A stretch of 64,000 nucleotides of DNA, taken from sequence record PV029541, one strand, 5' to 3'. The stretch comes from Escherichia phage PBM-2. Position numbers and translations under genes: made by a program. The notes beneath the pieces were generated by a model. The model made no database searches and was not told the origin of the DNA. It saw only the letters and a program-made list of their open reading frames with translations. The stretch's first letter is position 1. Each line of letters begins with the position of its first letter. Of the stretch, positions 12,301 through 46,393 are shown one piece after another.

Positions 12301-12543
12301 ATGGAATCTTTAGCAGCAATCCTTGTTTTCTTATTCATACTAGCTGTATACCTCATCCCTACTATCATTGCTTTTGCACGAGGCCATGCCTCCAAGTGGG
12401 GTATTGGTGTACTCAATATTGTATTAGGCTGGTCACTGGTATTCTGGGTAGTAGCACTGATTTGGGCACTGTCCAACAAAGGGCAAAGCCAAGTTACAAA
12501 CGTAACTGTTGTTCAAACCAATGGCGGTAGTAAAGCAGAGTAA
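12301..12543 (+). CDS. superinfection immunity protein (T4 Imm-like), membrane
   Basis: Track ORF 12265..12543; YLIPTIIAFARGH...LNIVLGWSLVFWVVALIWAL matches my recollection of the Imm-type family; two TM helices; AGGA RBS before internal ATG at 12301. Confidence 0.55.
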   Translation: MESLAAILVFLFILAVYLIPTIIAFARGHASKWGIGVLNIVLGWSLVFWVVALIWALSNKGQSQVTNVTVVQTNGGSKAE

Positions 12544-32867: not shown

Positions 32868-34331
32868 TATCGTGAAGGGTTCTGTTAGAATCCTTTGAGA
32901 TAGGAACTCCTATCATAACCTTTCTTAACTTAATCTTTGCCGTATGGCACTGACGCTAGGGGTGGACCCCCATCCGTCAGACAGACTATTTTAAGAATTG
33001 GTTATCACAGCAAATGTAAAGCAACATTCGGGTTAATCAATGGCCTCTCCCTATAGGGGCCATTTCTGAATCTTAGGCTATATCCCAAAGGTTAGTATCT
33101 TTAGGATAAGGCTTCAGATCCCTTATCAAACTAACCGCTCAATGTTGAGCATTCTAATCACATAAGCCCCTATATGGGCTGGGTTAAATGTCGGATAGCC
33201 TAGCTACCTACAACATCGAACTGTTAGATCTTACATGCAATATAGGGTATAAAGGGAGGATTCGTCCCCTCCCCCCTATTATGGGCTATCAGTGAGTGCA
33301 TTAGTTGATTAGCTGTGGAAGGTAGGCCGATGTCCACAAGCGTGGCCCAGAGCTAGTGTACTCTTTGATAGTTTTCGTAAGCGATTATGCGGTTTTTTAG
33401 AAACGAACCAATAACATAAATGCAAACGATGATGTTGTTCTGATGGCAGCCTAATAAGCCAAGCGTCAGTCAGGAGTGAGTCGTCCTGATTATCAAACGA
33501 CCGTGGAGTGTCCCCGTCCATGTATTAGAAACGGGGAGTTAATCAATGGTATGTGATAGCTCAAATAGGTAGAGCGTGAGGCTACAGTGCTGAATGGTTT
33601 GTGGGTTCGATTCCCACCCATGCCTACAGTCCAGACGATATCTGAGTGACTATAAAAACAGATGGAGCCAGGTGGAATCCCTGGCAATTAATTCCGGTGT
33701 AGGTACTAGTGTCGTGCACGGCATGAGTGTTCTGGTTCGAGTCCAGACGCCGGAACCAATTATCAGTTGCACGAGATGGCTTGACATGTTCAAGTTTGGA
33801 CTAAGTGTGACACCGCTAGATTGGAGGGCTGCTGCGGTAAGCTATAGACTCCAACCGGAGGTTCGAATCCTTCACTGATAACCAATTCAAAGTAGCATTG
33901 TATATTTAAATGTTTCCCGGCATTTAAAGCACCCACCGTGACAGTGCTACTCTAAATTGGAAGAATTATGGGGGTAAGTCGTAACCATACGACGGCGTAA
34001 GTACCAGATGAGACTTCTGGACGCCCCTACCATATTTGAGGTGTAACAGTTAAATCCAGTTGCCGGAAGTGCAATTCTAGATACGCTGCCAATGTGTGAA
34101 CGGTAAGGCTGTACAGGACTCGGACTCCCACCTCAAACCAAAGTCGCCAGGTACTTATGGCAAACGGGTAGTAACGAACTAGTCATTCGTCAAACGCCCA
34201 ACCCAATTATGAGTCAGCAAGAACGCCTTCACTTAAACTTAAACAAAAAAGCTTAACGCAATAATTATGTAGGGGTATGTAAGGATTGCGAAGAAGGAGC
34301 CAGTTAGAGTCTGGCATGACTCACCTATTAA

Positions 34332-34407
34332 TACCCGGTAGGCTTAGTGGTAAAGCCCCACTAGTAAACCAACTAGGACGCAGGTTCGAATCCTGTCCGG
34401 GTAACCA
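34332..34407 (+). tRNA. tRNA gene (anticodon not resolved; CCA encoded; approx. coords)
   Basis: Perfect 7-bp acceptor stem tacccgg/ccgggta, D-arm ggct-tagtggtaa-agcc, T-arm gcagg-ttcgaat-cctgt, discriminator A then CCA; anticodon arm folds only as ctagt/actag with a 6-nt loop, so possibly aberrant. Confidence 0.5.
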
Positions 34408-34413
34408 TATTAT

Positions 34414-34487
34414 GTCCGCTTAGCTTAGACTGGGAAAGCAACCGACTAATAATCGGAAAGTCACTGGTTCAAATCCAGTAGTGGACA
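34414..34487 (+). tRNA. tRNA gene, hand-folded anticodon AAU (needs confirmation; approx. coords)
   Basis: Acceptor gtccgct/agtggac (one G-U), D-arm gctt-agactggga-aagc, anticodon stem accga/tcgga with loop ctaataa (U33, A37), T-arm actgg-ttcaaat-ccagt. Confidence 0.55.
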
Positions 34488-34731
34488 CCCATTTAGCAGT
34501 AACATAGTCCTGATTGCATCGCACTCTAAAGACAACACTGGTAAGACAGTCCAGTGGCTGCTATTGTATTGTTATTCCCTTCGACGGGAATTTCGCTGGA
34601 GAATAGGAACTCCTTAAATCCTAGCCTGAGTAATTACCACAGGAACGGGACTATCAATCCCAAGCCTGGTCAGCGTGGACTGTCTTCGTGGTAAGAACCA
34701 AAAGCCTCCCAGCTATGGGTAAATAGTACTA

Positions 34732-34768
34732 AGTCCCCTGGAGCCGTCACTCTGGGGGACTTTTTTAT
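34732..34768 (+). terminator. rho-independent terminator after tRNA region (approx. coords)
   Basis: agtcccc...gggggact stem followed by ttttttattt. Confidence 0.5.
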
Positions 34769-35940: not shown

Positions 35941-35975
35941 AAATTAAAGCCCCTCTAATGAGGGGCTTTTTCATT
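35941..35975. terminator. bidirectional intrinsic terminator between convergent genes (approx. coords)
   Basis: 8-bp stem aaagcccct/aggggcttt flanked by an A-run on one side and a T-run on the other; lies between a plus-strand gene end and the vRNAP stop. Confidence 0.55.
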
Positions 35976-38900
35976 TAGTTAGCTAGATTGAGCCAAGGGT
36001 TAAGGTTATGGGCACGAAGTCCCTGACCGAAGCCCCAGGAGTAACCGAGATTGCCTTGTGCAGCAATACTGAAGATGTTGTCCTGAATAGGTAAACCAAC
36101 ATTACCAAACATGGTAGGAGTTGGAGCCAACATAGCCATAGCTGCGTGTACCGGGTTGTTACGAATCATGGATACTGCAATTTTTGCAGAACGAATCTTA
36201 AAATTATAGAACCACATAAGACCAACACTTTCCATATACCCACGGAAGCGACCAGGCAGACGGTCATAGTTAATGAACTCTTCCGTTACACGTCCAAGTG
36301 CTTCTTCACGAGTCTTACCTTTACGCTGAGTCAAATCATCATAGATGATTGCTTTAGCAATAAAGTCAGAGTACTCAACCGTCTTCTGGATACCCTGGAA
36401 TAAAGCAGTATCCTTGGTGATAAGGGCATAACGTCCAGCATTACGTACAGACTTAGGTAACTTATCAGCCAGTTTATCCATGTATTCGTGAAGTTTACCT
36501 TCAGTAATCAGGATGTCATCTCGTCCAATACCAGCATCTGCAATTGAAGAAAACTCACCAGCTTCTAACAGAGGCCAGATACTCATACGCTTATGACTAT
36601 CAGTGATGGACTGAATTTCAGCCTTAAGCTTACGAATCTGGTTCGGGTTAGTAGCTGCACGTAATTCTGCTTCTGCATCTACCTGACGCAGACGAGATTT
36701 CAGGTACTGGTTAATCTCAGCAGTCTTCTGTGGAATGCTCTTAGCAATGTTCTTAACAGGTACACCACGACCAACCATCTGGTAAAGGTTAGCCAGGAAG
36801 TTAACAGCAGGAACAACTACTGATTTAACTACAATCAGAGTCTTAGCTTCTTTAACTAAGTTTTGAACCAGGTTCTCACCACCCATTACATACTTATAAG
36901 CACGGTTGCCGAATACACCCAACATAGCTTTCTTGAAGGTATCCAGTGTTTCTGGTGACCAACGAGAATTGCCAGACCAGGCATCACCTACGGAAGCTGC
37001 ACGATAGCCCAGTGCATCATTCAGCATGTCACGACGTACCCACAACTCACCAGGACCAAACAGACTTTCTGCTTTCTGACGAGTTTCACTGTTCATCAGC
37101 TTAAGGGCATCAGCAGTTACTGGGTCCAGTTTAGAACCAAGAAGGTTAACGTACTGTGACTTGTTAGAGGCAGACATTTTAATGTCGTTTTCATACATGC
37201 TATGCAGGTTCTCAATCAGCATATCGTTAAAACGCTGAGCCTTAGCTTCCTCTACCTGACGACCACGCCATACACCGATTGCACGAGCGAGATGGTTCTC
37301 ACCCTCAATGTGCTTCAGCATGTTAGGGTCAATAGATTGCTCATAAGCAACCACATTGCCTTTATCATCATATACAGGCAGCAGTGGTTCATTACCACGT
37401 TCACCGCGAGCCAGTGCTTTAGTGATACGGTCTACAGAAGGCTTGTCAGTGATACGACCAGCTACCATTGTACCCATCGTAAAGCCTGTACCAAGGTCTA
37501 CACCACCAGCAGTATTGCGAACGTTCTGTAAGATACCTTGCGAGAATGGAGCCTGTGCCTGTACCGGTGCAAAGTAGTAGCTACGTGCTGGACCACGATT
37601 AGCAGAGCTACCCTGATAAGTACCCAGACGTACATAGGACTTCTCAATCAAATCAGCAAACTGACTATCTTCAGCAACAATCAAGTTAACACCCTGTTTA
37701 GTCTCACCAGGAATATACCCTTTGTACTGGTTCAGAGTTGCACGAGTATCAGATTTGGCTTTAGCCATTTCATCTTTACGCTGACCAACCAGATAAGAAG
37801 TAGCGAAGTCCATGCCTTCAATCTCTGTCTGAGCCAGTGAAGATAACATCTCACGGTCAGTCTTACTCATTGCTTCCAGTGCATACAGAGTAATCAGTTT
37901 ATCCAGTTGAGCTACATCTACAGTAGAACGTGCAGCCTGTCGTTCACCCAGCATACGAGAGATTGCAGTAGCATTACGCAGCAAGTTATTACCAACTGTG
38001 CCATTAATCATGTACTGAGCCAGTTGCTTAGATTTACGGCTAATCAAAGGCCAGTTACGTCCTGCTTGTTTCTGCAAATCTGCTTCCAGCTTATTCACTT
38101 CACGGTCAACAATCTTTTGGTCAGTCAGCAAGTCACGAATTTCACCCAGAGACATAGTGTCACGCAGAACAGCTAAGTCGGTTTTACCCATACCGGTATG
38201 CATTGCTTTCCACTCATCATTAGTAAGCTTACGGCTGAACTTAGATGCAATAGTGGTAGGCAAATGTTCACGGAACTGCTGACGGTCAGCCTGTACCTGT
38301 GCACGCACTGCTTTAATCAAATCATATACAGAAGCATTGCTCTTAGTACGACCAGTTAAGTCATTAACCAGGTCATGGAAAGGTTGCCATACCTTACCCT
38401 GGTTCATTGCAGCCATAACACCCTCAGCTACGATTGCACCATTTTTCTCTGTAGCAATAGCAGCTATTAGTTGTGCAGCATGAGCAGCACCTTTAACCAA
38501 CGGGTTCTTGGTATTAGCTGCAACTTCACGAGCACCCTCTAAAGCACGGGTAGACAGTACATCAATAGAATCCACCAGATACTGGTTAGCACGGTCGATA
38601 GCATTACCACTAGGAGTAGCAATGGAATCATAGAAGGACTGCGCATTGAGACTCGTCTGCATGATTGTCTGAGCCAGTGCATCCATACCTTCCTGTACGT
38701 TGGTAGCTTTAGTATCTCCTGCTACACGAGCATTCAGACTAGCCATTGCAGCAGTACCGATGTTAGTCAGCATTGCATCAGCGGTATTGCCAGATTTCTT
38801 GTCTACTTTCATAACAGGAATGTCAGCCAGTACTTTACGCACTTCTTCACTTACCATTGCCAGACCAACAAAGGTAGGCAGTAAGGAAGAACGGCCTTGT

Positions 38901-41900
38901 GCATCAAACTCAATGTTGTTAGCACCCATGATGGTATCGAACTTCTGCTGTGCATAGTAACGGTCAGCAGGGTTAGTACTATCTGGGTCAGCCATGAATG
39001 ACTCAACGGTCAGGTTCTTAGTAACATGTGTGTAGTATTCCTGTGCACGAGCCAGAGCAGCAGGATTAATAGCAGCTTCAGTAGCCAGTGCAGCAACAAT
39101 GTTAGTAAAGAGACGTTGTTCCTGCATATTCATAGTGAAGCCATGAGCCTGAACATCACGAGTTACTTTAGTCGCATTAACCACTGCATCAGAGAACTTA
39201 CCTTTACGAATTACTTGCTGTACTGGTTCAGAACCAATGTAGTCAGTAATCAGTTTATCGAAGGTTTTCCCTAGCTCTTCCAGACGAGTATTGTCACCAT
39301 ACGTTTTGTTATGGAACAGAGTAGTATCTTTGGCTACAGCAGCAGTAGGAGCTTGCCCACGCATAACTACGGACGAGTTAAACAGTAAGCCAGAGAACAT
39401 ATCATCTGCATTAGCTGGTGCTTTCTTACGCCCAAATACCAGACGCTTGATTGCTTCATATACAGCCTGAACCATAGTCTTCAGTGCAGTGGTTTTCTTC
39501 TGCTTACTAATCAGTTCACGGTTAGTTAAACCCCATGCCATGTACTCATTCAGTGCAGCAGCTTTAGCCATTGCTGGCTCAATGAAGCCATTAGATAGAT
39601 GACCGTTAATAGTATTAAGAGCATCTGCATATGCTTCCCGAACTGCCGGGGATTCATCCTTAACATCCAGAGCACGGAACTGGTTCATCAGGTCTTCAAT
39701 GTTCTGGACCGCTTCATTAGGAGTACCCTCATAGTGAGCCAGTACAGATTCAAAAGTAGAAGCATGCACCAATTCATGAACCAGAGTCTCTAAGGAAGGG
39801 GTAACTAAGTAGATGGTCTTATCTTCAAAGTTAGTCCAACCATACGCATTACCAGCTTCAGCAGCTTCAATATCTTCTGGTGCTGGGCGAGTAATATTCT
39901 TCTCAATAGCATAAGCATCCAGTTGGGAAGGTGTACCGTAAACAACCTTATAATCTTTAGCAGCAAGGGATTTCTGTACTTCTTTCAGTACTGCTTGCTG
40001 TTCCGGAGACATCTCTTTAGCCAGCTTAGAGATAGCAGTATTAGACAGTAGGCGTACACCAGACTTCAGTACACGACCAACCTGTTCCATTGCTGGCACT
40101 TCTTTCACTGGTTCTACTTTAGCAGCACGTACTGCATCACGACGTTTGTTTAATTCAGCATCGAACAGTTCATTTAGCTTAGCTACTTGTTGGTCTACGG
40201 TCAGACCTTCCAGAGAGATTTTACCGTTGTTCACATAAGGAGCACCAACAGCAGCCATCTGGTCAACAGTAGTCTGTACCTGGTTCATTACTTTGTGACG
40301 AATATCTACACCCAGAGCAATATTACGCAGGTTACGTTCAATCTGTTCAGCACCAACACGTAACAGGTCATCGGTAGCACCTTCACGCTGGTCATATTCC
40401 AGAGCAGATTTAGCGATAGCCTGTTTGGTTTCATCAGATAGTTTGCTGAAGTCTACGTTCTTCATGAACTTAGTAAAAGACTCATAAACATTCTTGATAG
40501 GGTTACCCTGCCAGGAAGTGTATACAGCCTCGTTAGCTTTACGACTTGCATCAGTGATGTTGTCGATACCAATGTTCATACCATCAAAGATTTTCAGGGT
40601 ATTCTTCGGAGCACCTTTCATAGTAGAAAGGGTCTGCATCATCATGCCATCACCAGTGCCAATGGTCATAAATGGAATACCTGCAACGCCTGCCTGAGAA
40701 GGAGCATAGATGCTCATTGGCACACGCATACGGTCATCTAAGTTGGTAGCCAGTACCTGGTTAGCAACATCAGTATTCTCACTACCAGCAATATAGAAAG
40801 TCTGTGAACCAGTCTCAATCATTGGAGCCAGTGGAGACAATGATTCCTGAATTTCATTCAGTTCTTTCTGTGTTAAGAAATCACCCTTCTTCCAGGTTGG
40901 GTCTTTTTCTTTTTCTGCCAGCTTAGCCTGTACTGCTTGTTGGAACATGTCTTGTAGAACCAAAGACTGAATCTGGGTAGCCTTCTGCAAGTTCTCAGTA
41001 GAATGCATCAGACCTTCCCCAACAGTATTCCGGATACCAGTACGCATTGGTTCAACGAACAGGTGAAGCATGTTCTCTTGTAAGTTCTTCAGGGCATTAC
41101 CCGATACGGTAAACTTCTGAGGGTCTAACTTACCAGTCAGAGCACCTTCTACCTGTTGAATAGACAATTCACCTTTACGCATAACTGGAACATTACCAGT
41201 CAGTGCTTCCATAGAAGTAAGGAAAGTATCCAGCATAGCCTGAGCATCAGCCTCAGACGCAGCCTCCTTACCAAACATTGCCATAGCTGGGGAAATACTA
41301 GGGTCAGCAGCACGAGCTTGCAGAACATCACTGAAGCGTTCATAGATGGTATCAGTAATTGCACTAACCATCTTGCCAGCAATACCACGAGCACCTGAAC
41401 CATAGATGGTAATGGTCAGTGGGTTTTTAGCGATACCACGTTTTAGGTCCAGAGTACCGTCTTCATTCAGGTTAAAGTCTTTAATAAACAGGTCCATTAA
41501 CTTCTGAAGATGATTCATTTGGTTCATAACCGGAACGTTGTTACGGTAAGTAGTACGTAACTCATTAAGTGCTTGTTGCAGACCATTGGTAGATGCTTCA
41601 TACAGGTCAACACTGTCATCCTGTGAACGATGCTCATTCATAGTCTTACCAGCTTTACCGAAGAACAGACCACCTTTAGCAGTATTCTTAATCCAGTCTG
41701 AAGTGAACTTACCACCTGTCATTAATATCATTGCGTTGATTGGTCCGTTGGTTACACCATCGGCTTCAACGTACAGTGGGGTATTAAAGTTGGCACGGTC
41801 ATCACTGTTCAGGTAACGGGCATATTCCATAAGAGCCATGAGAGCTACGAATGATTTATCGCCACCCAAAGAAGTCTTCAGAATATCTACTGCATCAGCT

Positions 41901-44900
41901 GGTAAGTGGCCAGACTTATCAAACTCAACCATCATATCAACAGCAGGTTTCAGATTACCTTCCAGAGCTTTGGTCAGCTTTTCAGACATAGCTTCACGGG
42001 ACATATTATGTACCTTGATACCCAATGCCTGAGCCAGTCCTAGCTGGAAGTCAGAGAATGTTTGGCTGTTTTCATTACTCAAGTCAATAGTAGAGAAGGT
42101 TGGCAGAATTGCTTCACGAACCAGTTTACTGGATTGTGGGTTGTTCTTACCTAACATCTGCATACGACCTACACGGGTCATGTTGTAACCATAGTGAATA
42201 GGCGTATCCAGACCATTCTCCTGTTCCTGTAACTGGTTGATTACACCGAACAGGGAATCATATGCCATAGACACTGACAGGTTTTTACCCTCCAGTGACT
42301 TAGCAGTGTTCACGTTCAGCAGTTCAGGATTAAGAGTACCAGCACCCATCAGTTCCAGAATGTTGTCACGACCTAATGCTTCATAGAAGTTAACCATCGG
42401 CATGTGTACACGGAACTCGGTAGCCTGTTCTGCTTTAAGAGCAGCTTTCTGCTCTGGGGTATTCTTAACAGCAGGGTTACGTAACTGAGTTTGAGCCACG
42501 GAAGGAATATCATCACCAAAGTACATTTTCTCTTCTGGTTCTACGAGAACAGCTTCCTCGATAGCAGTAGGGAACTTGTTAATGGCATCGTTATCATCCA
42601 GCTTCTCAATGGTATACAGACCGACGGTCTTATTAGAGTCTGGGTCAATCTCAGACACATCAAGCATAGACTCTTTAACTTCACCCATCTCAATGAGAGA
42701 AGACAGAATCTCTGTAGCCATTGCCATTGGAATACCTTTGGTATAACCCAGTGGTGCATTAGGATTACGATTCAATCCCCAGTAAGATTCAATCTTTTGA
42801 GCCAGTGAGTTAGTAGCTTCAACCAGAGTCTGAGCATTCTCAAATTCAGCCAGGATACCTTCAGGTAACAAGGATGCTTCTACTCCAGTAATAGCAGCTA
42901 CATCTTTCATGTCTTTAACAGCAGCATTCTGTGTAGCAGTCAGTCGCCATTGCAGACCAGCAAGTACAGCAGTCTCTAACAACTGGTCATTGAACTTAAA
43001 GGTGTCTCCGTCTTTCTCTACGATATTAAGTAACTTACCACCTACCCAACGGTTAGCCTCTGTGCCTTCTGCAAAGCGTTTACCAACGTTCTTATTAGCA
43101 AGAAACTTAGCCAGACGATCAGACAGAGTAGTCTTCAGAGTTTCACCAAAGCCCATTAAGTCCTGATAACGCTTAATCACATCACTTGTGAGAGCGTTAT
43201 TTTCTTTTTGAGTGAATGCTTCAAAGCGTGCAGTAGAAGACAGTGCTTGCTTAATATCAGTCAAAGGGGATTCAGAACCAATGGTGCGAGACTTAGGTTC
43301 TTCCGGCAGGGTAAATGATTTCAGGAACTGGTTCGGTGTCTTGTCATTGTTATAGACAGGGAAAACTGTTTCCATTTCCGTTTTAGTTTCAGCTACTTTT
43401 TGAGTGGTATCCTCATTGGTGAGGGTAGCATCTACTGTTTCAGACTTAGTAGTAGAGACTTCTTCTGCTTTTGAACTAGCCTCTTTAACAGGAACAGTCT
43501 TATTTTCTACCACTGGTTTAGCTTTAGGCTGTACAGTAGTAGTAGTAGTCTCTTGCGCTGGTGCAGGAGTTTCATCAACCTGATTCACTGGTTCATTGGT
43601 CTGTTGAGACTGAGTGGCATCAAGACCACCTTGACGGAACTCTTTAACTACCTGGGCAGCAGGCTTGTCCAGACGTGAATCTAATGGAGTAACCTTCACA
43701 TGAGAAACATTAAGCTCCGGGTAAGCCGTAGCAAGTGCGTTAGCAATATCAGCTACGGTTTTGGCCTCCAGTCCTACTTGCTGGGCAAACTTAACCGACT
43801 TGGTATCATACGGATTGACACCAAGACCAGTACGACTACGTACCCATTCACGGGAGGGAGTAAGAGCCTGATAATGGACAGACTTATTCTTATCCGCATT
43901 CCCAGAAATCAGATGCTCATTCAACGCTCCGACCTTATTCTGCATGTGCTGGGCGAACTTCATAAAGTCGTCGAGGTAAGCGGAAGCCAAATCGAAGTTA
44001 CCAGAGTTGTACGCAGAACGAATGCGTTTAGCATGTTGCAACGCAGAGTACTGACCTTCATTAGAACGAGACTCGTCGGTTTTAATCTGTTTACTAACAA
44101 TGTCTTGAGGACGTAAGCCTAGTTCTTCTGCTTTAGCGTCAAATTCTCGTGCTCCTTGCAATAGAGCAGCAGCAGATTGCAGGGCAGCACGCTGACGATT
44201 CCCCAGTGTAATCTTACCTTCACTTGCATGTTTCAGAACCATGTTCACTGAGTCTGCATCCAGTACTTCTGGAGACATATCAGCAGCCATAGCAATGTTG
44301 TTTGCTTGGGCTTGGTTAGCTTCTTCGGTAGCTTTCAGTTTACCTGCTTCAGCCTGTTCCTGAATCATAGAATGGATGGCACGGAATGCACGAAGTACCT
44401 TTGGTGTATTCTGAACGTTAGCCATCAGGCCGGAGAACTGGTCAACAATATTAGCAGCAGGAGAACCCTGTTCCAGATTAGCTAAAGCACCAGGATCACG
44501 GTTAATGAAGCTATCCATAGACATGATGTTGTCATACATCTGGATTGCAGCTTCCATTTGAACGTTAGGGTCTTCAGTAGTATTAACCAGGTCTGCCATC
44601 TTCTGAATAGCTTCCACACGGTTAGTGGAACCAGAAACAGCTTCACGGATTGTAGGACTAGCTTGCTCCAGTTCTACTGGGTCAAACTTCATTGCCTGAG
44701 TTAAGTCAGCAGCATACTGAGTAGCAGCAGCTTTCTCTTCAGGAGAAATGTCCATTGCATCTACTGCTTCCTGTACAGTTGCTTGTGCTTGTTCTGCTTG
44801 AGCAGTAGCTTCTTGTGCAGCAGCATTAACCGTAGCATCTGATACAGGGGATGCTTGCTCATTACGCTTAGCAACTTCTTCGCCACGCTGAACCAGGATG

Positions 44901-46330
44901 TTAGTAATAGGAGAGGCAGCTTTTGCTAATGCACTACCAACCAGAGAAGCACCAGCCAGAGTAGTACGTAAAGCAGGCCCAGCAGAAGCACCAACAGCTT
45001 TAACAGTTGTACCTGGAGCCTGAGCAACACCAGCACTACCGAAGCCGTAGAGTGCACCAAGACCTGCTTGCTCACCGACACCTTTAAGCAAATCACGCTT
45101 AGCATCTACATTACCCTGAATTGCCTTGTTCTGTGCAAACTGACTTGTACCAGACTGAATACCTTCTTCTACTGTTTCACGTAGCATGTTAGAACCAGCA
45201 CCAGCCAGCGAACCTACCTTAAGTGGGTTAAGTTCAAATTTGGATACCAGAGGACCAGTAGCAGCAGCAACCGGAGCAGTTAAGCCAGCAGCAATGATAC
45301 CCGTTTCAGATGCAGTTTGGCGACGTGCTTCATCAGGAGATAAACCATCAGCGATATGCTGTTGATAAACAGGAGACTTACTTGCCAATTCTTGATGGGA
45401 CATCTTCATGATTTCGGAAGCAGTCTGTTGGTATGCACCACCAGCTTCCATACCACCAATTGCAATAGCAGGTGCAGCAACACGACCAGCAGACAATGCA
45501 ACCTGTGCAGGACGTGAACCTAACTCAGCAGCTAAGGTAATACCCTTAACAGCTTTATCACCACCTACCATTACTTTACCGAGTGCAGATACACCACGAA
45601 TTAATGGACCACCGGTAAAGAGAGAACCAACACCTTCACTCAGCCCATCAGTAGCAGCCATACCATTATCAAGCGTATTAGCAACAGAATCAAAAGCATC
45701 ACGACCAATACGAGACAGAGAGGCAACCAAACTGCTCTCTCCATTTTTAATGTCTTCTTCGTAGAGTTTCTGGTTCTTTTGTGCAGAAATCTGGTTCTGA
45801 TTCTGAACAACCTTACGGGTAGCATTCAGTGCGTCAGACTGTAGATTGTGTACCCCTTCATTCAGCCAATCCATCCCGGAAGCAATGGATGCCCCGGCAT
45901 TATCATTGACCAAACCCGTACCAAGAGCAGCAATGCCCCCAAGGGTATTAGCAACACCAAGACCAACACCAGAAAGAGTATCACCAAATGCTTCTGCGTT
46001 AGTACGTTGCTTAGATAAGTCCTGACGTACAACATCAGCAGCATTAGCTCGGCTATTAAGAATCTGTAGACCTTGCTCATTACCGTATTTATTAAGAATT
46101 TCTAATGGGGAGGCTTGAGTGAAATCTGCCTGAAGTGAACCTGGTTCGAATGCACCGATTCCAAGATTACCTACACGACCAGTTTGGAGATTGTAAGCAT
46201 TCTCTGGGGTTAATTGGAAAGGGCTTTGCCCTTGTGCAGCTTGCTTCTGAGAGGTTGCAGTAGAGACATCGACTTGCTTAGCATTAGTGATGCTGTCTGC
46301 GAAACCTGCCAGACGGTCAAATGTTGACAT
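35975..46330 (-). CDS. virion-encapsidated RNA polymerase (N4 gp50-like giant vRNAP)
   Basis: About 3450-aa ORF; central region has YVEADGVTNGP (motif A-like Asp) and KIFDGMNIGIDN (motif C-like Asp) as in N4 mini-vRNAP as I recall it; track start is TTG at 46348, ATG at 46330 has AGGAA RBS. Confidence 0.85.
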   Translation of the reverse strand: MSTFDRLAGFADSITNAKQVDVSTATSQKQAAQGQSPFQLTPENAYNLQTGRVGNLGIGAFEPGSLQADFTQASPLEILNKYGNEQGLQILNSRANAADVVRQDLSKQRTNAEAFGDTLSGVGLGVANTLGGIAALGTGLVNDNAGASIASGMDWLNEGVHNLQSDALNATRKVVQNQNQISAQKNQKLYEEDIKNGESSLVASLSRIGRDAFDSVANTLDNGMAATDGLSEGVGSLFTGGPLIRGVSALGKVMVGGDKAVKGITLAAELGSRPAQVALSAGRVAAPAIAIGGMEAGGAYQQTASEIMKMSHQELASKSPVYQQHIADGLSPDEARRQTASETGIIAAGLTAPVAAATGPLVSKFELNPLKVGSLAGAGSNMLRETVEEGIQSGTSQFAQNKAIQGNVDAKRDLLKGVGEQAGLGALYGFGSAGVAQAPGTTVKAVGASAGPALRTTLAGASLVGSALAKAASPITNILVQRGEEVAKRNEQASPVSDATVNAAAQEATAQAEQAQATVQEAVDAMDISPEEKAAATQYAADLTQAMKFDPVELEQASPTIREAVSGSTNRVEAIQKMADLVNTTEDPNVQMEAAIQMYDNIMSMDSFINRDPGALANLEQGSPAANIVDQFSGLMANVQNTPKVLRAFRAIHSMIQEQAEAGKLKATEEANQAQANNIAMAADMSPEVLDADSVNMVLKHASEGKITLGNRQRAALQSAAALLQGAREFDAKAEELGLRPQDIVSKQIKTDESRSNEGQYSALQHAKRIRSAYNSGNFDLASAYLDDFMKFAQHMQNKVGALNEHLISGNADKNKSVHYQALTPSREWVRSRTGLGVNPYDTKSVKFAQQVGLEAKTVADIANALATAYPELNVSHVKVTPLDSRLDKPAAQVVKEFRQGGLDATQSQQTNEPVNQVDETPAPAQETTTTTVQPKAKPVVENKTVPVKEASSKAEEVSTTKSETVDATLTNEDTTQKVAETKTEMETVFPVYNNDKTPNQFLKSFTLPEEPKSRTIGSESPLTDIKQALSSTARFEAFTQKENNALTSDVIKRYQDLMGFGETLKTTLSDRLAKFLANKNVGKRFAEGTEANRWVGGKLLNIVEKDGDTFKFNDQLLETAVLAGLQWRLTATQNAAVKDMKDVAAITGVEASLLPEGILAEFENAQTLVEATNSLAQKIESYWGLNRNPNAPLGYTKGIPMAMATEILSSLIEMGEVKESMLDVSEIDPDSNKTVGLYTIEKLDDNDAINKFPTAIEEAVLVEPEEKMYFGDDIPSVAQTQLRNPAVKNTPEQKAALKAEQATEFRVHMPMVNFYEALGRDNILELMGAGTLNPELLNVNTAKSLEGKNLSVSMAYDSLFGVINQLQEQENGLDTPIHYGYNMTRVGRMQMLGKNNPQSSKLVREAILPTFSTIDLSNENSQTFSDFQLGLAQALGIKVHNMSREAMSEKLTKALEGNLKPAVDMMVEFDKSGHLPADAVDILKTSLGGDKSFVALMALMEYARYLNSDDRANFNTPLYVEADGVTNGPINAMILMTGGKFTSDWIKNTAKGGLFFGKAGKTMNEHRSQDDSVDLYEASTNGLQQALNELRTTYRNNVPVMNQMNHLQKLMDLFIKDFNLNEDGTLDLKRGIAKNPLTITIYGSGARGIAGKMVSAITDTIYERFSDVLQARAADPSISPAMAMFGKEAASEADAQAMLDTFLTSMEALTGNVPVMRKGELSIQQVEGALTGKLDPQKFTVSGNALKNLQENMLHLFVEPMRTGIRNTVGEGLMHSTENLQKATQIQSLVLQDMFQQAVQAKLAEKEKDPTWKKGDFLTQKELNEIQESLSPLAPMIETGSQTFYIAGSENTDVANQVLATNLDDRMRVPMSIYAPSQAGVAGIPFMTIGTGDGMMMQTLSTMKGAPKNTLKIFDGMNIGIDNITDASRKANEAVYTSWQGNPIKNVYESFTKFMKNVDFSKLSDETKQAIAKSALEYDQREGATDDLLRVGAEQIERNLRNIALGVDIRHKVMNQVQTTVDQMAAVGAPYVNNGKISLEGLTVDQQVAKLNELFDAELNKRRDAVRAAKVEPVKEVPAMEQVGRVLKSGVRLLSNTAISKLAKEMSPEQQAVLKEVQKSLAAKDYKVVYGTPSQLDAYAIEKNITRPAPEDIEAAEAGNAYGWTNFEDKTIYLVTPSLETLVHELVHASTFESVLAHYEGTPNEAVQNIEDLMNQFRALDVKDESPAVREAYADALNTINGHLSNGFIEPAMAKAAALNEYMAWGLTNRELISKQKKTTALKTMVQAVYEAIKRLVFGRKKAPANADDMFSGLLFNSSVVMRGQAPTAAVAKDTTLFHNKTYGDNTRLEELGKTFDKLITDYIGSEPVQQVIRKGKFSDAVVNATKVTRDVQAHGFTMNMQEQRLFTNIVAALATEAAINPAALARAQEYYTHVTKNLTVESFMADPDSTNPADRYYAQQKFDTIMGANNIEFDAQGRSSLLPTFVGLAMVSEEVRKVLADIPVMKVDKKSGNTADAMLTNIGTAAMASLNARVAGDTKATNVQEGMDALAQTIMQTSLNAQSFYDSIATPSGNAIDRANQYLVDSIDVLSTRALEGAREVAANTKNPLVKGAAHAAQLIAAIATEKNGAIVAEGVMAAMNQGKVWQPFHDLVNDLTGRTKSNASVYDLIKAVRAQVQADRQQFREHLPTTIASKFSRKLTNDEWKAMHTGMGKTDLAVLRDTMSLGEIRDLLTDQKIVDREVNKLEADLQKQAGRNWPLISRKSKQLAQYMINGTVGNNLLRNATAISRMLGERQAARSTVDVAQLDKLITLYALEAMSKTDREMLSSLAQTEIEGMDFATSYLVGQRKDEMAKAKSDTRATLNQYKGYIPGETKQGVNLIVAEDSQFADLIEKSYVRLGTYQGSSANRGPARSYYFAPVQAQAPFSQGILQNVRNTAGGVDLGTGFTMGTMVAGRITDKPSVDRITKALARGERGNEPLLPVYDDKGNVVAYEQSIDPNMLKHIEGENHLARAIGVWRGRQVEEAKAQRFNDMLIENLHSMYENDIKMSASNKSQYVNLLGSKLDPVTADALKLMNSETRQKAESLFGPGELWVRRDMLNDALGYRAASVGDAWSGNSRWSPETLDTFKKAMLGVFGNRAYKYVMGGENLVQNLVKEAKTLIVVKSVVVPAVNFLANLYQMVGRGVPVKNIAKSIPQKTAEINQYLKSRLRQVDAEAELRAATNPNQIRKLKAEIQSITDSHKRMSIWPLLEAGEFSSIADAGIGRDDILITEGKLHEYMDKLADKLPKSVRNAGRYALITKDTALFQGIQKTVEYSDFIAKAIIYDDLTQRKGKTREEALGRVTEEFINYDRLPGRFRGYMESVGLMWFYNFKIRSAKIAVSMIRNNPVHAAMAMLAPTPTMFGNVGLPIQDNIFSIAAQGNLGYSWGFGQGLRAHNLNPWLNLAN

Positions 46331-46393
46331 AGCATGTTTCCTGTTCAAACTTATATCGTATATAGAAAGCTTACTCTACAGTAAGCCAGTGTA

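Follow-up and report, generated by a model that had tools for sequence, protein, structure and literature searches.

Transfer-messenger RNA (tmRNA) is regarded as a single bacterial molecule in which a tRNA-like half and an mRNA-like half act together. Phages also carry such molecules: a survey described tmRNAs only in mycobacteriophages (the Bxz1 group) and in Bacillus phage G, plus a form consisting of the tRNA-like domain (TLD) only in phage DS6A (PMC4131195). Here we describe a new family of tmRNA derivatives that has the mRNA-like half only and that we call tag RNAs. The copy we analyzed in most detail lies at 33370-33537 in a stretch of 64,000 nucleotides from Escherichia phage PBM-2 (PV029541; hereafter the window), a Gamaleyavirus of the N4-like Schitoviridae. 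The PBM-3 record (PV053165.1) is identical (100%) to the window, and the GenBank labels cited below for the window are those of that record. The tag RNA is the center of an RNA-gene island at 32870-34760, placed between the last + strand genes and an opposite-strand gene of 3457 amino acids. The island contains two tRNAs, three T-arm-bearing tRNA-like RNAs, conserved hairpin modules, the tag RNA and one strong terminator. An earlier note, made from the sequence without database searches, had drawn the interval as poor in open reading frames (ORFs) and rich in RNA structure. That overall picture was right, but the main feature, the tag RNA, went unrecognized, and the island is both real and more interesting than was proposed.

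The first lead was given by a permissive Rfam scan in which tmRNA_permuted (RF04321) matched 33352-33454 with 32.7 bits (E 4e-4), below its gathering score of 47. The aligned part reads AUAAAU GCA AAC GAU GAU GUU GUU CUG AUG GCA GCC UAA UAA. Two other tmRNA models scored lower in the window, RF01849 at 15 bits and RF00023 at 15.5 bits, the latter through a T-arm only. The sub-threshold match together with homologues and covariation defined the core of the element as 33370-33537 (+ strand, as are the other parts of the island below), which comprises a 5' conserved domain, the tag frame in a helix 5 equivalent and two pseudoknots. Just upstream, at 33355-33369, sequence comparison identified the 5' flank motif AGTGTACTCTTTGAT, the window version of a family boundary motif, AGTGCTCTTTCC. 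The 5' domain holds the most conserved segment of the molecule, AGCGATTATGCGGTTTTTTA, at 33380-33399, which conservation and RNAduplex calculations lead us to call the predicted docking loop. On visual comparison, AGUGCUCUUUCCGAUAGUUUUCGU…GCGACUUUGCGG…AGAAAC in the 5' part runs colinear with nt 1-36 of the host tmRNA gene ssrA.

The tag frame occupies 33422-33454, is preceded by an A-rich leader, and reads GCA AAC GAT GAT GTT GTT CTG ATG GCA GCC TAA, giving ANDDVVLMAA. It lacks a start codon, has an in-frame TAG eight codons upstream, and is followed by a second TAA at 33455-33457. In the helix 5 equivalent (33440-33469) codons 7-10 form pairs with nucleotides 3' of the stop codon, which itself lies in the loop. 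Pseudoknot PK2 (33470-33501) has a first stem of 33470-75 with 33484-89, and its GTCG loop (33480-83) pairs with CGAC (33498-33501). In pseudoknot PK3 (33502-33537) stem 1 is formed by CGTGGA (33502-07) and TCCATG (33517-22) and stem 2 by TCCCCG (33511-16) and CGGGGA (33532-37). Two characters of the mRNA-like part of tmRNA are therefore present: a resume-type frame that lacks a start codon and ends in a degron-like C-terminus and stop, and placement of the stop and the 3' end of the tag in helix 5 with flanking pseudoknots, the upstream PK1-like part being weakly supported.

These helices were subjected to a covariation test in an alignment (A1) of 63 sequences covering 31 pairs in seven helices: two PK1-like helices upstream, the two-part helix 5, both stems of PK2 and stem 1 of PK3. 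The model pairs were formed in 90.1% of cases versus 81.1% in shuffles, and slid partners gave 37-48%. Changes on both sides of a pair were seen in 16 of the 31 pairs (168 cells), a level reached by none of 500 shuffles. In helix 5 compensatory change affects all four pairs of the outer stem and one of the three inner pairs; the outer stem is CUGA/UCAG or CUGG/CCAG, and becomes CGAG/CUCG in Salmonella phage 7-11 at the cost of one amino-acid change. Both stems of PK2 covary, the loop-downstream pairing varying as CCGA/UCGG, CCAG/CUGG and CCAA/UUGG, and stem 1 of PK3 is found as CGCAC/GUGUG, CGCAG/CUGUG, CGCAU/AUGUG, and CGUGG/CCAUG versus CAUGG/CCGUG. The upstream helix GUUUU/GAAAC is invariant and hence outside the reach of covariation, whereas the second upstream (PK1-like) pairing is weakly supported (80% paired, one compensatory pair). 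We conclude that 33370-33537 is, with high confidence, a conserved, structured and tmRNA-related RNA.

Relatives were collected by use of a 17-nt tag pattern and a degenerate 24-nt pattern of the 5' conserved block in viral contigs, plus BLAST against GenBank phages, and 113 distinct copies were recovered. By BLAST the tag RNA is present in 314 phage records of GenBank and, within prophages and P1-like plasmids, in 362 of the 5426 complete genomes of E. coli. It is unannotated throughout, the entry at almost every match being 'None'. As host ssrA, which is in all 5426 genomes, was unmatched by BLAST, the family and the host gene are distinct. The tag RNA is carried by Gamaleyavirus and other N4-like phages, P1, HK620, Salmonella phage 7-11, Drexlerviridae, Jersey-like siphoviruses and the Ackermannviridae Det7, PWKp5, Serratia phage 3M and Erwinia phage Bue1, among others. 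Sub-threshold tmRNA_permuted or beta_tmRNA matches fell on the tag region in all seven phages scanned for them (the window, HK620, Det7, ESP2949-1, Serratia 3M, Bue1 and 7-11), the six beyond the window having E values of 0.002 to 0.68. In some GenBank records, those of Bas96 (L002, 838-2334) and of some Klebsiella and Salmonella phages, short 'hypothetical protein' ORFs or a 'RIIA lysis inhibitor' are laid over the RNA modules; these ORFs are probably annotation artefacts.

The reading frame is a feature of every copy. Each has 10 codons, starts with GCA or GCT followed by AAY, and ends with (A/V)A and a stop codon. There are about 21 tag peptides, among them ANDDVVLMAA, ANEEMYLAVA, ANDEQFLAVA, ANDNTFLAVA and ANDDLMLMAA; P1 has ANDDLMMVAA, 7-11 has ANDNAFRVAA and Bue1 has ANDNEFKVAA. 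The phage tags are never of the host YALAA type. All 35 distinct 33-nt tag sequences are exactly 10 codons long, and their variation is concentrated at third codon positions (entropy 1.05, versus 0.58 at first and 0.49 at second positions). Pairs of tag sequences that are single-nucleotide neighbors differ synonymously in 13 of 19 cases, against an expectation of 23.5%, and the stop codon varies among TAA, TAG and TGA. Since frame length, the AN…(A/V)A pattern and the synonymous excess are traits of translated sequence, we consider that the tag is probably decoded. As there is no start codon, trans-translation is the only known route by which this could happen. Ordinary translation of the tag was rejected: no in-frame start exists, an in-frame TAG lies upstream, and Serratia 3M and Bue1 lack the overlapping AUG frame. 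Protein coding by the element on either strand was also rejected, as no frame on either strand was open in more than 10 of 63 sequences and the ORFs tested had no Pfam or PHROG match.

The other half of a tmRNA is missing. ARAGORN was run on the window and on 23 family loci and called no tmRNA in any of them, and Rfam at gathering threshold gave no tmRNA-family match in the 11 family loci scanned. The tag RNAs fail these thresholds because the tRNA-like domain (a 7-bp acceptor stem with G3·U70, a T-arm and a 3' CCA) is lacking. A T-arm was absent from -300 to +600 nt in 56 of the 113 copies, and the whole genome of HK620, the smallest carrier, has no tRNA, tmRNA or tRNA-like match. Recognizable sigma-70 promoters lie directly upstream of the Ackermannviridae, Jersey-like and L012-type copies with no T-arm between, and because of this position an upstream acceptor piece of the permuted type is excluded. 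A circularly permuted gene was ruled out by the same adjacent promoters together with the spacing of only ~35 nt between the two helix-2-like strands. Hence, the tag RNA retains the mRNA-like half of tmRNA and is without the tRNA-like domain.

A self-sufficient minimal tmRNA, in which the tag RNA would itself be aminoacylated on a reduced acceptor arm and enter stalled ribosomes, must be weighed here. The acceptor could be a 12-bp flank helix (AGUGCUCUUUCC/GGUAAGAGCAUU, with a G·U near its end) or, in N4-like relatives, PK3 plus ACCA. Such a molecule is suggested by the complementarity of the flank motifs over 12 bp in many copies, by the colinearity, on reading of the sequences, of the 5' flank plus GUUUUCGU with the tmRNA 5' end (GGGGCUGAUUCUGGAUUCGAC), and by several N4-like relatives in which PK3 ends in ...ACGGGGA-ACCA, spaced as a tRNA 3' end in an array. 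However, the window copy has neither the 3' flank strand nor ACCA (GGGGAGTTAAT follows PK3), and no partner for its 5' flank above chance was found within the window. The 5' strand is absent in P1 and in the L012 family, Jersey-like transcription starts at a 5' strand that is not complementary, the G·U falls at 2:71 rather than 3:70 and is not conserved (P1), and most copies lack CCA. Moreover, the flank motifs also bracket neighboring modules, and in P1, Det7 and ESP2949-1 they pair with those neighbors with compensatory changes. Both candidates were therefore rejected, the flank motifs as a general acceptor stem (on the missing 3' strand in the window and 5' strand in P1) and PK3 plus ACCA as a plant-virus-like acceptor of the turnip yellow mosaic virus (TYMV) type (on its restriction to some N4-like relatives and the window sequence after PK3). 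We consider a self-sufficient tag RNA quite unlikely.

The boundary motifs have a wider distribution. In unrelated phages, complementary versions (CAGGTAAGAGCATT and AGTGCTCTTTCC) take turns along arrays of RNA modules (for example L124, at 533-545, 603-614, 790-805 and 876-888), and in some loci (L134, L004, L145, L191) a T-arm stands immediately 5' of an AGTGCTC motif. The boundary motifs could serve in RNA processing, as acceptor-like stems, or as linkers at which cassettes are exchanged by recombination. A second conserved RNA-like module, unannotated, follows the tag RNA in several temperate and T1-like phages (L124/HK620, 876-1000; L126/pYD38-A, 840-960; L004; L134). Its start is again the boundary motif (AGTGCTCTTTCCG(G/T)TGTGGTGAATGCGCAGGCTGATGCGCG…), and within it GGTGTGGTG pairs with CCACCACA in a long-range helix.

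The host tmRNA offers a possible source of the missing half. The family's most conserved segment, AGCGACUUUGCGGGUUUUUA (in the window AGCGAUUAUGCGGUUUUUUA at 33380-33399), is complementary over ~19 nt, with one 5-nt host-side bulge, to E. coli ssrA nt 67-92 (GUAAAAAGCCGCAAAAAAUAGUCGCA). This host stretch comprises the 3' strand of pseudoknot 1, the A-rich linker, the frame-setting A86-C89 and the first two bases of the resume codon. As RNAduplex of the whole phage RNA against ssrA was uninformative, segment-wise tests were used instead. The window segment gave -22.8 to -23.6 kcal/mol (z -4.7), and for 21 of 22 segment variants the best ssrA duplex was at nt 67-93, with energies of -19 to -25 kcal/mol and z scores of -1.3 to -5 (20 of the 21 below -2). 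The consensus segment gave -23.0 kcal/mol versus -16.8 ± 2.1 for shuffled ssrA (0/300). Ranked against the 127,960 20-nt windows of the 64-kb stretch (mean -6.6, sd 2.7), the segment was first at -23.6 kcal/mol, with one comparable locus. Pairing in cis would be weaker: with the same topology the segment and its own equivalent (resume) region average only -9.4 kcal/mol, and E. coli's own best cis partner for the host stretch reaches only -15.1 kcal/mol. The near-invariant GCGG finds a perfect partner, CCGC, only in the host, its own partner CCAC giving a C·A mismatch. Pairing is kept by both main variants of the segment, …GACUUUG… and …GAUUAUG…, in different registers on one and the same host sequence. 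Conservation of the host target extends to the tmRNAs of ~118 species of Enterobacterales and Orbales, in line with the host range of the carrier phages. Thus, at the level of sequence, the segment has a conserved complementarity to a host RNA that is beyond chance.

From these data we favor the following mechanism. The conserved segment would anneal to host tmRNA nt 67-92 and thereby mask the start of the host tag. Annealing would tether the phage tag frame to the alanine-charged tRNA-like domain of the host molecule and its SmpB, such that a ribosome entering trans-translation via host tmRNA would read the phage frame instead. The outcome would be a heterologous two-piece tmRNA that rescues stalled ribosomes with a phage tag in place of …YALAA. 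That the tag RNA acts by docking on host tmRNA and substituting its tag is possible but rather doubtful.

The same complementarity would serve a pure antisense inhibitor or decoy, which would bind the host resume codon or titrate a partner while its own frame stays undecoded. A duplex of ~19 bp could recruit RNase III, and partial tmRNAs do occur in phages: DS6A has a TLD-only tmRNA, and a similar TLD-only molecule has been shown to inhibit tmRNA (Hudson et al. 2014, PMC4131195). If the frame were untranslated, however, 10 codons in 35 of 35 variants, variation at third positions and exchange of TAA, TAG and TGA with AN…(A/V)A kept would be unexpected, and a simple antisense RNA would have no need of a helix 5 and two pseudoknots under compensatory selection. 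We think a purely antisense function unlikely.

Several observations weigh against tag substitution by docking. All steps of the mechanism beyond a conserved structured RNA with a coding-like frame are ones that we infer, and homology accounts for some of the complementarity to host tmRNA. The weak cis pairing with the element's own resume region shows some covariation (CUUUG:CAAAG versus UUAUG:CAUAA). Energies close to that of the docking segment were given by a GC-rich PK3 window and by 12367-12389 (-23.1 kcal/mol with ssrA nt 61-100); the latter lies inside a coding region and its complementarity is probably due to chance. The helix that would present the loop, GUUUU/GAAAC, is the invariant one that is beyond the covariation test. 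To our knowledge, naturally permuted two-piece tmRNAs, with their cognate pieces, are the only molecules for which use of a tag template held by intermolecular pairing is on record. Two classes of tag exist, …MAA and …AVA; ClpXP probably recognizes them differently, and hence they point to no single downstream effect. Finally, the search seeds were taken from the element itself, such that the uniformity of the copies may be overstated.

The setting of the element in well-studied phages bears on when it might be made. In P1 (NC_005856, 68899-69062) it lies in the leader of the C1-controlled ban operon, between a dicF-like region and tRNA-Asn. Within the P1 locus as extracted here (L119, 2393-2494 and 2488-2680) the tag RNA begins right after the terminator of the dicF-like region and is upstream of tRNA-Asn and tRNA-Thr. 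As the dicF-like region, the tag RNA and the tRNAs are all in the C1-repressed leader, the P1 ban leader is an RNA-gene cluster. The HK620 copy lies between the late promoter pR'/qut and the terminator tQ. Lambdoid late promoters of the pR' type are generally held to fire constitutively, and because the element sits behind pR' the HK620 tag RNA may be expressed in lysogens. These positions suggest that timing would differ by phage: possibly during lysogeny in HK620, after loss of repressor in P1 and during infection in the lytic phages.

The remaining RNAs of the island surround the tag RNA. ARAGORN called exactly two tRNAs, at 34332-34407 and 34413-34491, and Rfam (RF00005, gathering score 29) also found both, in agreement with the earlier report of two adjacent tRNA-like genes. 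The first (40.7 bits; 'tRNA-OTHER' in GenBank and 'tRNA-???' in ARAGORN) has a normal acceptor stem, D-arm, T-arm and ACCA, and a 6-nt anticodon loop (AAACCA) in which ARAGORN gives a 2-base anticodon; it is kept, at 96%, in one related contig only (L115). The second (61.6 bits) is a tRNA-Ile, called by ARAGORN with anticodon AAU. This anticodon is unusual, and the labels of relatives vary between Ile and Xle.

At least three further T-arm-like elements without a canonical cloverleaf had been suspected. Three perfect T-arms are indeed present, GTGGG-TTCGATT-CCCAC (33602-33618), TCTGG-TTCGAGT-CCAGA (33731-33747) and GGAGG-TTCGAAT-CCTTC (33857-33873), and none belongs to a tRNA that is canonical by ARAGORN or Rfam: at E<=10 the Rfam tRNA model gave no match for 33549-33626, 33693-33758 or 33761-33884. 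The second and third belong to two tRNA-like RNAs that we call C1 and C2, each with an encoded ACCA 3' end. C1 (33693-33758, 66 nt; fold z -2.45) consists of an 8-bp acceptor stem, one central hairpin with a 4-nt loop and a T-arm, and lacks a D-arm; in a comparison of nine phages its T stem and central hairpin show compensatory changes. C2 (33761-33884, 124 nt) is supported by covariation and has an acceptor stem TATCAGT/ACTGATA, an enlarged structured body and a T-arm; three pairs of its acceptor stem as well as its T stem and inner hairpin have compensatory changes. Across 7-9 N4-like phages the stems of both RNAs are kept in this manner and ACCA is invariant. Both have the acceptor stem on a T-arm and the single-stranded NCCA 3' end that define a tRNA-like RNA, and both are without an anticodon loop and without G3·U70. 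The ACCA-ended tRNA-like RNAs would be separate products of the same processed transcript as the tag RNA. C1 and C2 may be mimics of tRNA acceptor ends; on the docking model they would be further mimics, aimed at translation or at tRNA-targeting machinery.

The third element, 33549-33626, is annotated in GenBank as tRNA-Cys (ACA). Its D-arm and T-arm are good, its acceptor stem has U3·G70 and a mismatch at 7:66, and it lacks a canonical anticodon stem and CCA. ARAGORN calls it in phage ECBP1 and leaves it uncalled in the window. This element, which may be a decaying tRNA, raises the question of whether the whole island is an ordinary tRNA cluster plus decaying debris, its T-arm fragments and tag-like stretch being functionless pseudogenes or recombination scars from hosts. 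In keeping with such an origin, the element has no proper anticodon stem and a fold that is not more stable than those of shuffles (z -0.24), and the region is highly mosaic, with modules present, absent or permuted among close relatives and with repeats at junctions (ACCAAT and GTTAATCAATGG). The latter is a direct repeat found twice, at 33033-33044 before a hairpin at 33039 and at 33538-33549 before the tRNA-like element. At the second site relatives have ACCAATCAATGG, a swap that suggests a cassette junction. Debris, however, would not be expected to conserve the tag RNA over unrelated phage families with compensatory changes and a preserved frame, to give tags that are never of the host type, or to keep the stems and ACCA of C1 and C2. 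As an account of the island, decay is very improbable; it is strongly disfavored for the tag RNA, C1 and C2, and possible for 33549-33626 and some hairpins. As the island modules are gained, lost and permuted among close relatives with junctions at ACCAAT-type sequences, the island behaves as an exchangeable array of RNA cassettes with tRNA-like processing.

Smaller modules fill the rest. Just 5' of the tag RNA, at 33310-33354, is a small conserved hairpin with a GUGGA...UCCAC stem, which covaries with that of L094 (GAGGA/UCCUC) and which has a 47-nt match of ~90% identity in Ackermannviridae loci. A compact three-helix module at 33967-34033, ending ...CCCCTACCA (…CCUACCA), folds with z -2.6 (0 of 200 shuffles as stable) and is conserved in close relatives only. 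The structured module at 34497-34563, defined by alignment, has a GCAGT...GCTGC closing stem around a CACTGG...CCAGTG hairpin and is nearly invariant in six N4-like phages, with one compensatory pair. The island closes with an intrinsic terminator at 34731-34762, a covarying 13-bp stem followed by TTTTTTATTT (fold z -4.5). The segments 32870-33300 and 34035-34330 are conserved among close relatives only. The hairpins singled out in the earlier note all exist, but only one of them, the 10-bp hairpin AATGGCCTCTCCCTATAGGGGCCATT at 33039-33064, which has no U-tract, clearly beats shuffles (z -3.4), the others giving z -0.4 and -1.3. The CCCTATA core that several were said to share is not enriched in the window as a whole: it occurs 5 times versus 8 expected, four of the five within 33049-33247. 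These ccctata hairpins are the least informative part of the region. The wider surmise that the region encodes structured noncoding RNAs or unusual tRNAs beyond simple tRNA supplementation is borne out by the ACCA-ended tRNA-like RNAs, the element labeled tRNA-Cys, the tRNA with the 6-nt loop and the pseudoknotted tag RNA. The island holds more than ordinary tRNAs, and covariation is seen in the tag RNA, C1, C2 and the terminator/34497 module.

The scarcity of ORFs also held. The longest + strand ORF within 32868-34768 has 94 amino acids (33594-33878) and spans tRNA-like modules whose order is permuted in relatives, and Pfam and PHROG gave no matches for the five ORFs of this interval that were tested. 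A different view of the region would take its hairpins as promoters and terminators for N4-type polymerases and its small ORFs (13 are annotated in Bas96) as encoding micro-proteins. Some GenBank records do annotate many short ORFs here and one genuine terminator is present, but the five tested ORFs are without matches, covarying RNA helices run through the annotated ORFs, no conserved frame spans the tag RNA, and promoter-like matches are at chance level (7 found versus 5.2 expected). A regulatory or protein-coding region is thus hardly credible as the explanation. Beyond the island, the 3457-amino-acid ORF (35975-46348, - strand) is labeled 'DNA polymerase' in GenBank; its size and position are those of an N4-type virion RNA polymerase. 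Taken as a whole, our best explanation is that 32870-34760 is a transcribed RNA-gene island that ends the rightward gene block, with one strong terminator as its close, and that it includes a tag RNA whose tag is decoded and which docks on host tmRNA. In this complete form we hold it to be almost, though not quite, an even proposition.

Were docking to occur, each protein that leaves a stalled ribosome would have its fate rewritten by phages, or by prophages such as HK620 and P1. Nearly all gammaproteobacterial tags carry YALAA, and in E. coli the terminal Ala-Ala is critical for ssrA-type degrons (bioRxiv 10.1101/2024.01.29.576913). The phage tags end in …LMAA, in which Ala-Ala is kept, or …LAVA, in which it is lost, and the SspB-binding part is also altered. 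These changes would give rescued proteins a fate unlike that under the host tag, in a direction that sequence does not predict. The family extends over textbook phages (P1 and HK620), lytic phages of the therapeutic type (N4-like, Vi1-like and T1-like) and ~7% of complete E. coli genomes, a reach by which viral interference with ribosome rescue and protein quality control would be routine. It is an old observation that some P22-type hybrid phages and Mu depend on tmRNA. The tag RNA provides a testable explanation of this dependence and a 20-nt interface that can be mutated.

Annotation pipelines miss the tag RNA entirely and sometimes overlay spurious ORFs. We found no earlier description of it in a full-text search of the literature, the coverage of which was incomplete, so a prior description elsewhere is possible. 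A 2025 tmRNA database admitted only complete genes including CCA (PMC11915505), and because of this requirement it would discard tag RNAs by design.

How the tag RNA relates to known RNAs can be stated as follows. It shares with RNAs that act in trans through a loop-displayed antisense sequence a conserved segment of ~20 nt that is complementary over an extended length to a single-stranded region in one particular host RNA, but here the pairing is predicted and the segment is joined to a large, pseudoknotted and apparently decoded domain. Species 1 and RNAs C and D of phage T4, small stable RNAs that are cotranscribed and processed with the phage tRNAs, offer a possible parallel to C1, C2 and 33549-33626. 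Like bacterial tmRNA (SsrA, RF00023), the tag RNA has a frame that lacks a start codon and begins GCA AAC GA (Ala-Asn-Asp/Glu), with 10 codons as in E. coli. It also has an A-rich stretch before the resume codon, a tag that ends in a small hydrophobic residue plus Ala, a stop codon in the helix 5 hairpin, H-type pseudoknots after the tag and a 5' part colinear with ssrA nt 1-36. In contrast to bacterial tmRNA it is without a T-arm, a G3·U70 acceptor stem and CCA, fails ARAGORN and all Rfam gathering scores, has two downstream pseudoknots rather than three and ~170 nt rather than 363, never encodes …YALAA, and is carried by phages, often beside tRNA genes. The two-piece permuted tmRNAs of Alpha- and Betaproteobacteria and cyanobacteria (RF01849-51, RF04321), whose models are the best (sub-threshold) Rfam matches of the tag RNA, have a coding RNA base-paired to an acceptor, as is proposed here. 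Their pieces, however, derive from one gene and one precursor, whereas tag RNA loci encode no acceptor piece (HK620 has none), and the proposed partner is the intact one-piece tmRNA of the host, engaged at its resume region and not by way of helix 2 and the acceptor stem. The phage tmRNAs described earlier are, like the tag RNA, phage-borne tmRNA derivatives, and DS6A is a case in which a partial tmRNA is carried. Those molecules are complete or, in DS6A, the tRNA-like half only, whereas the tag RNA is the mRNA-like half only and belongs to enterobacterial phages outside those lists.

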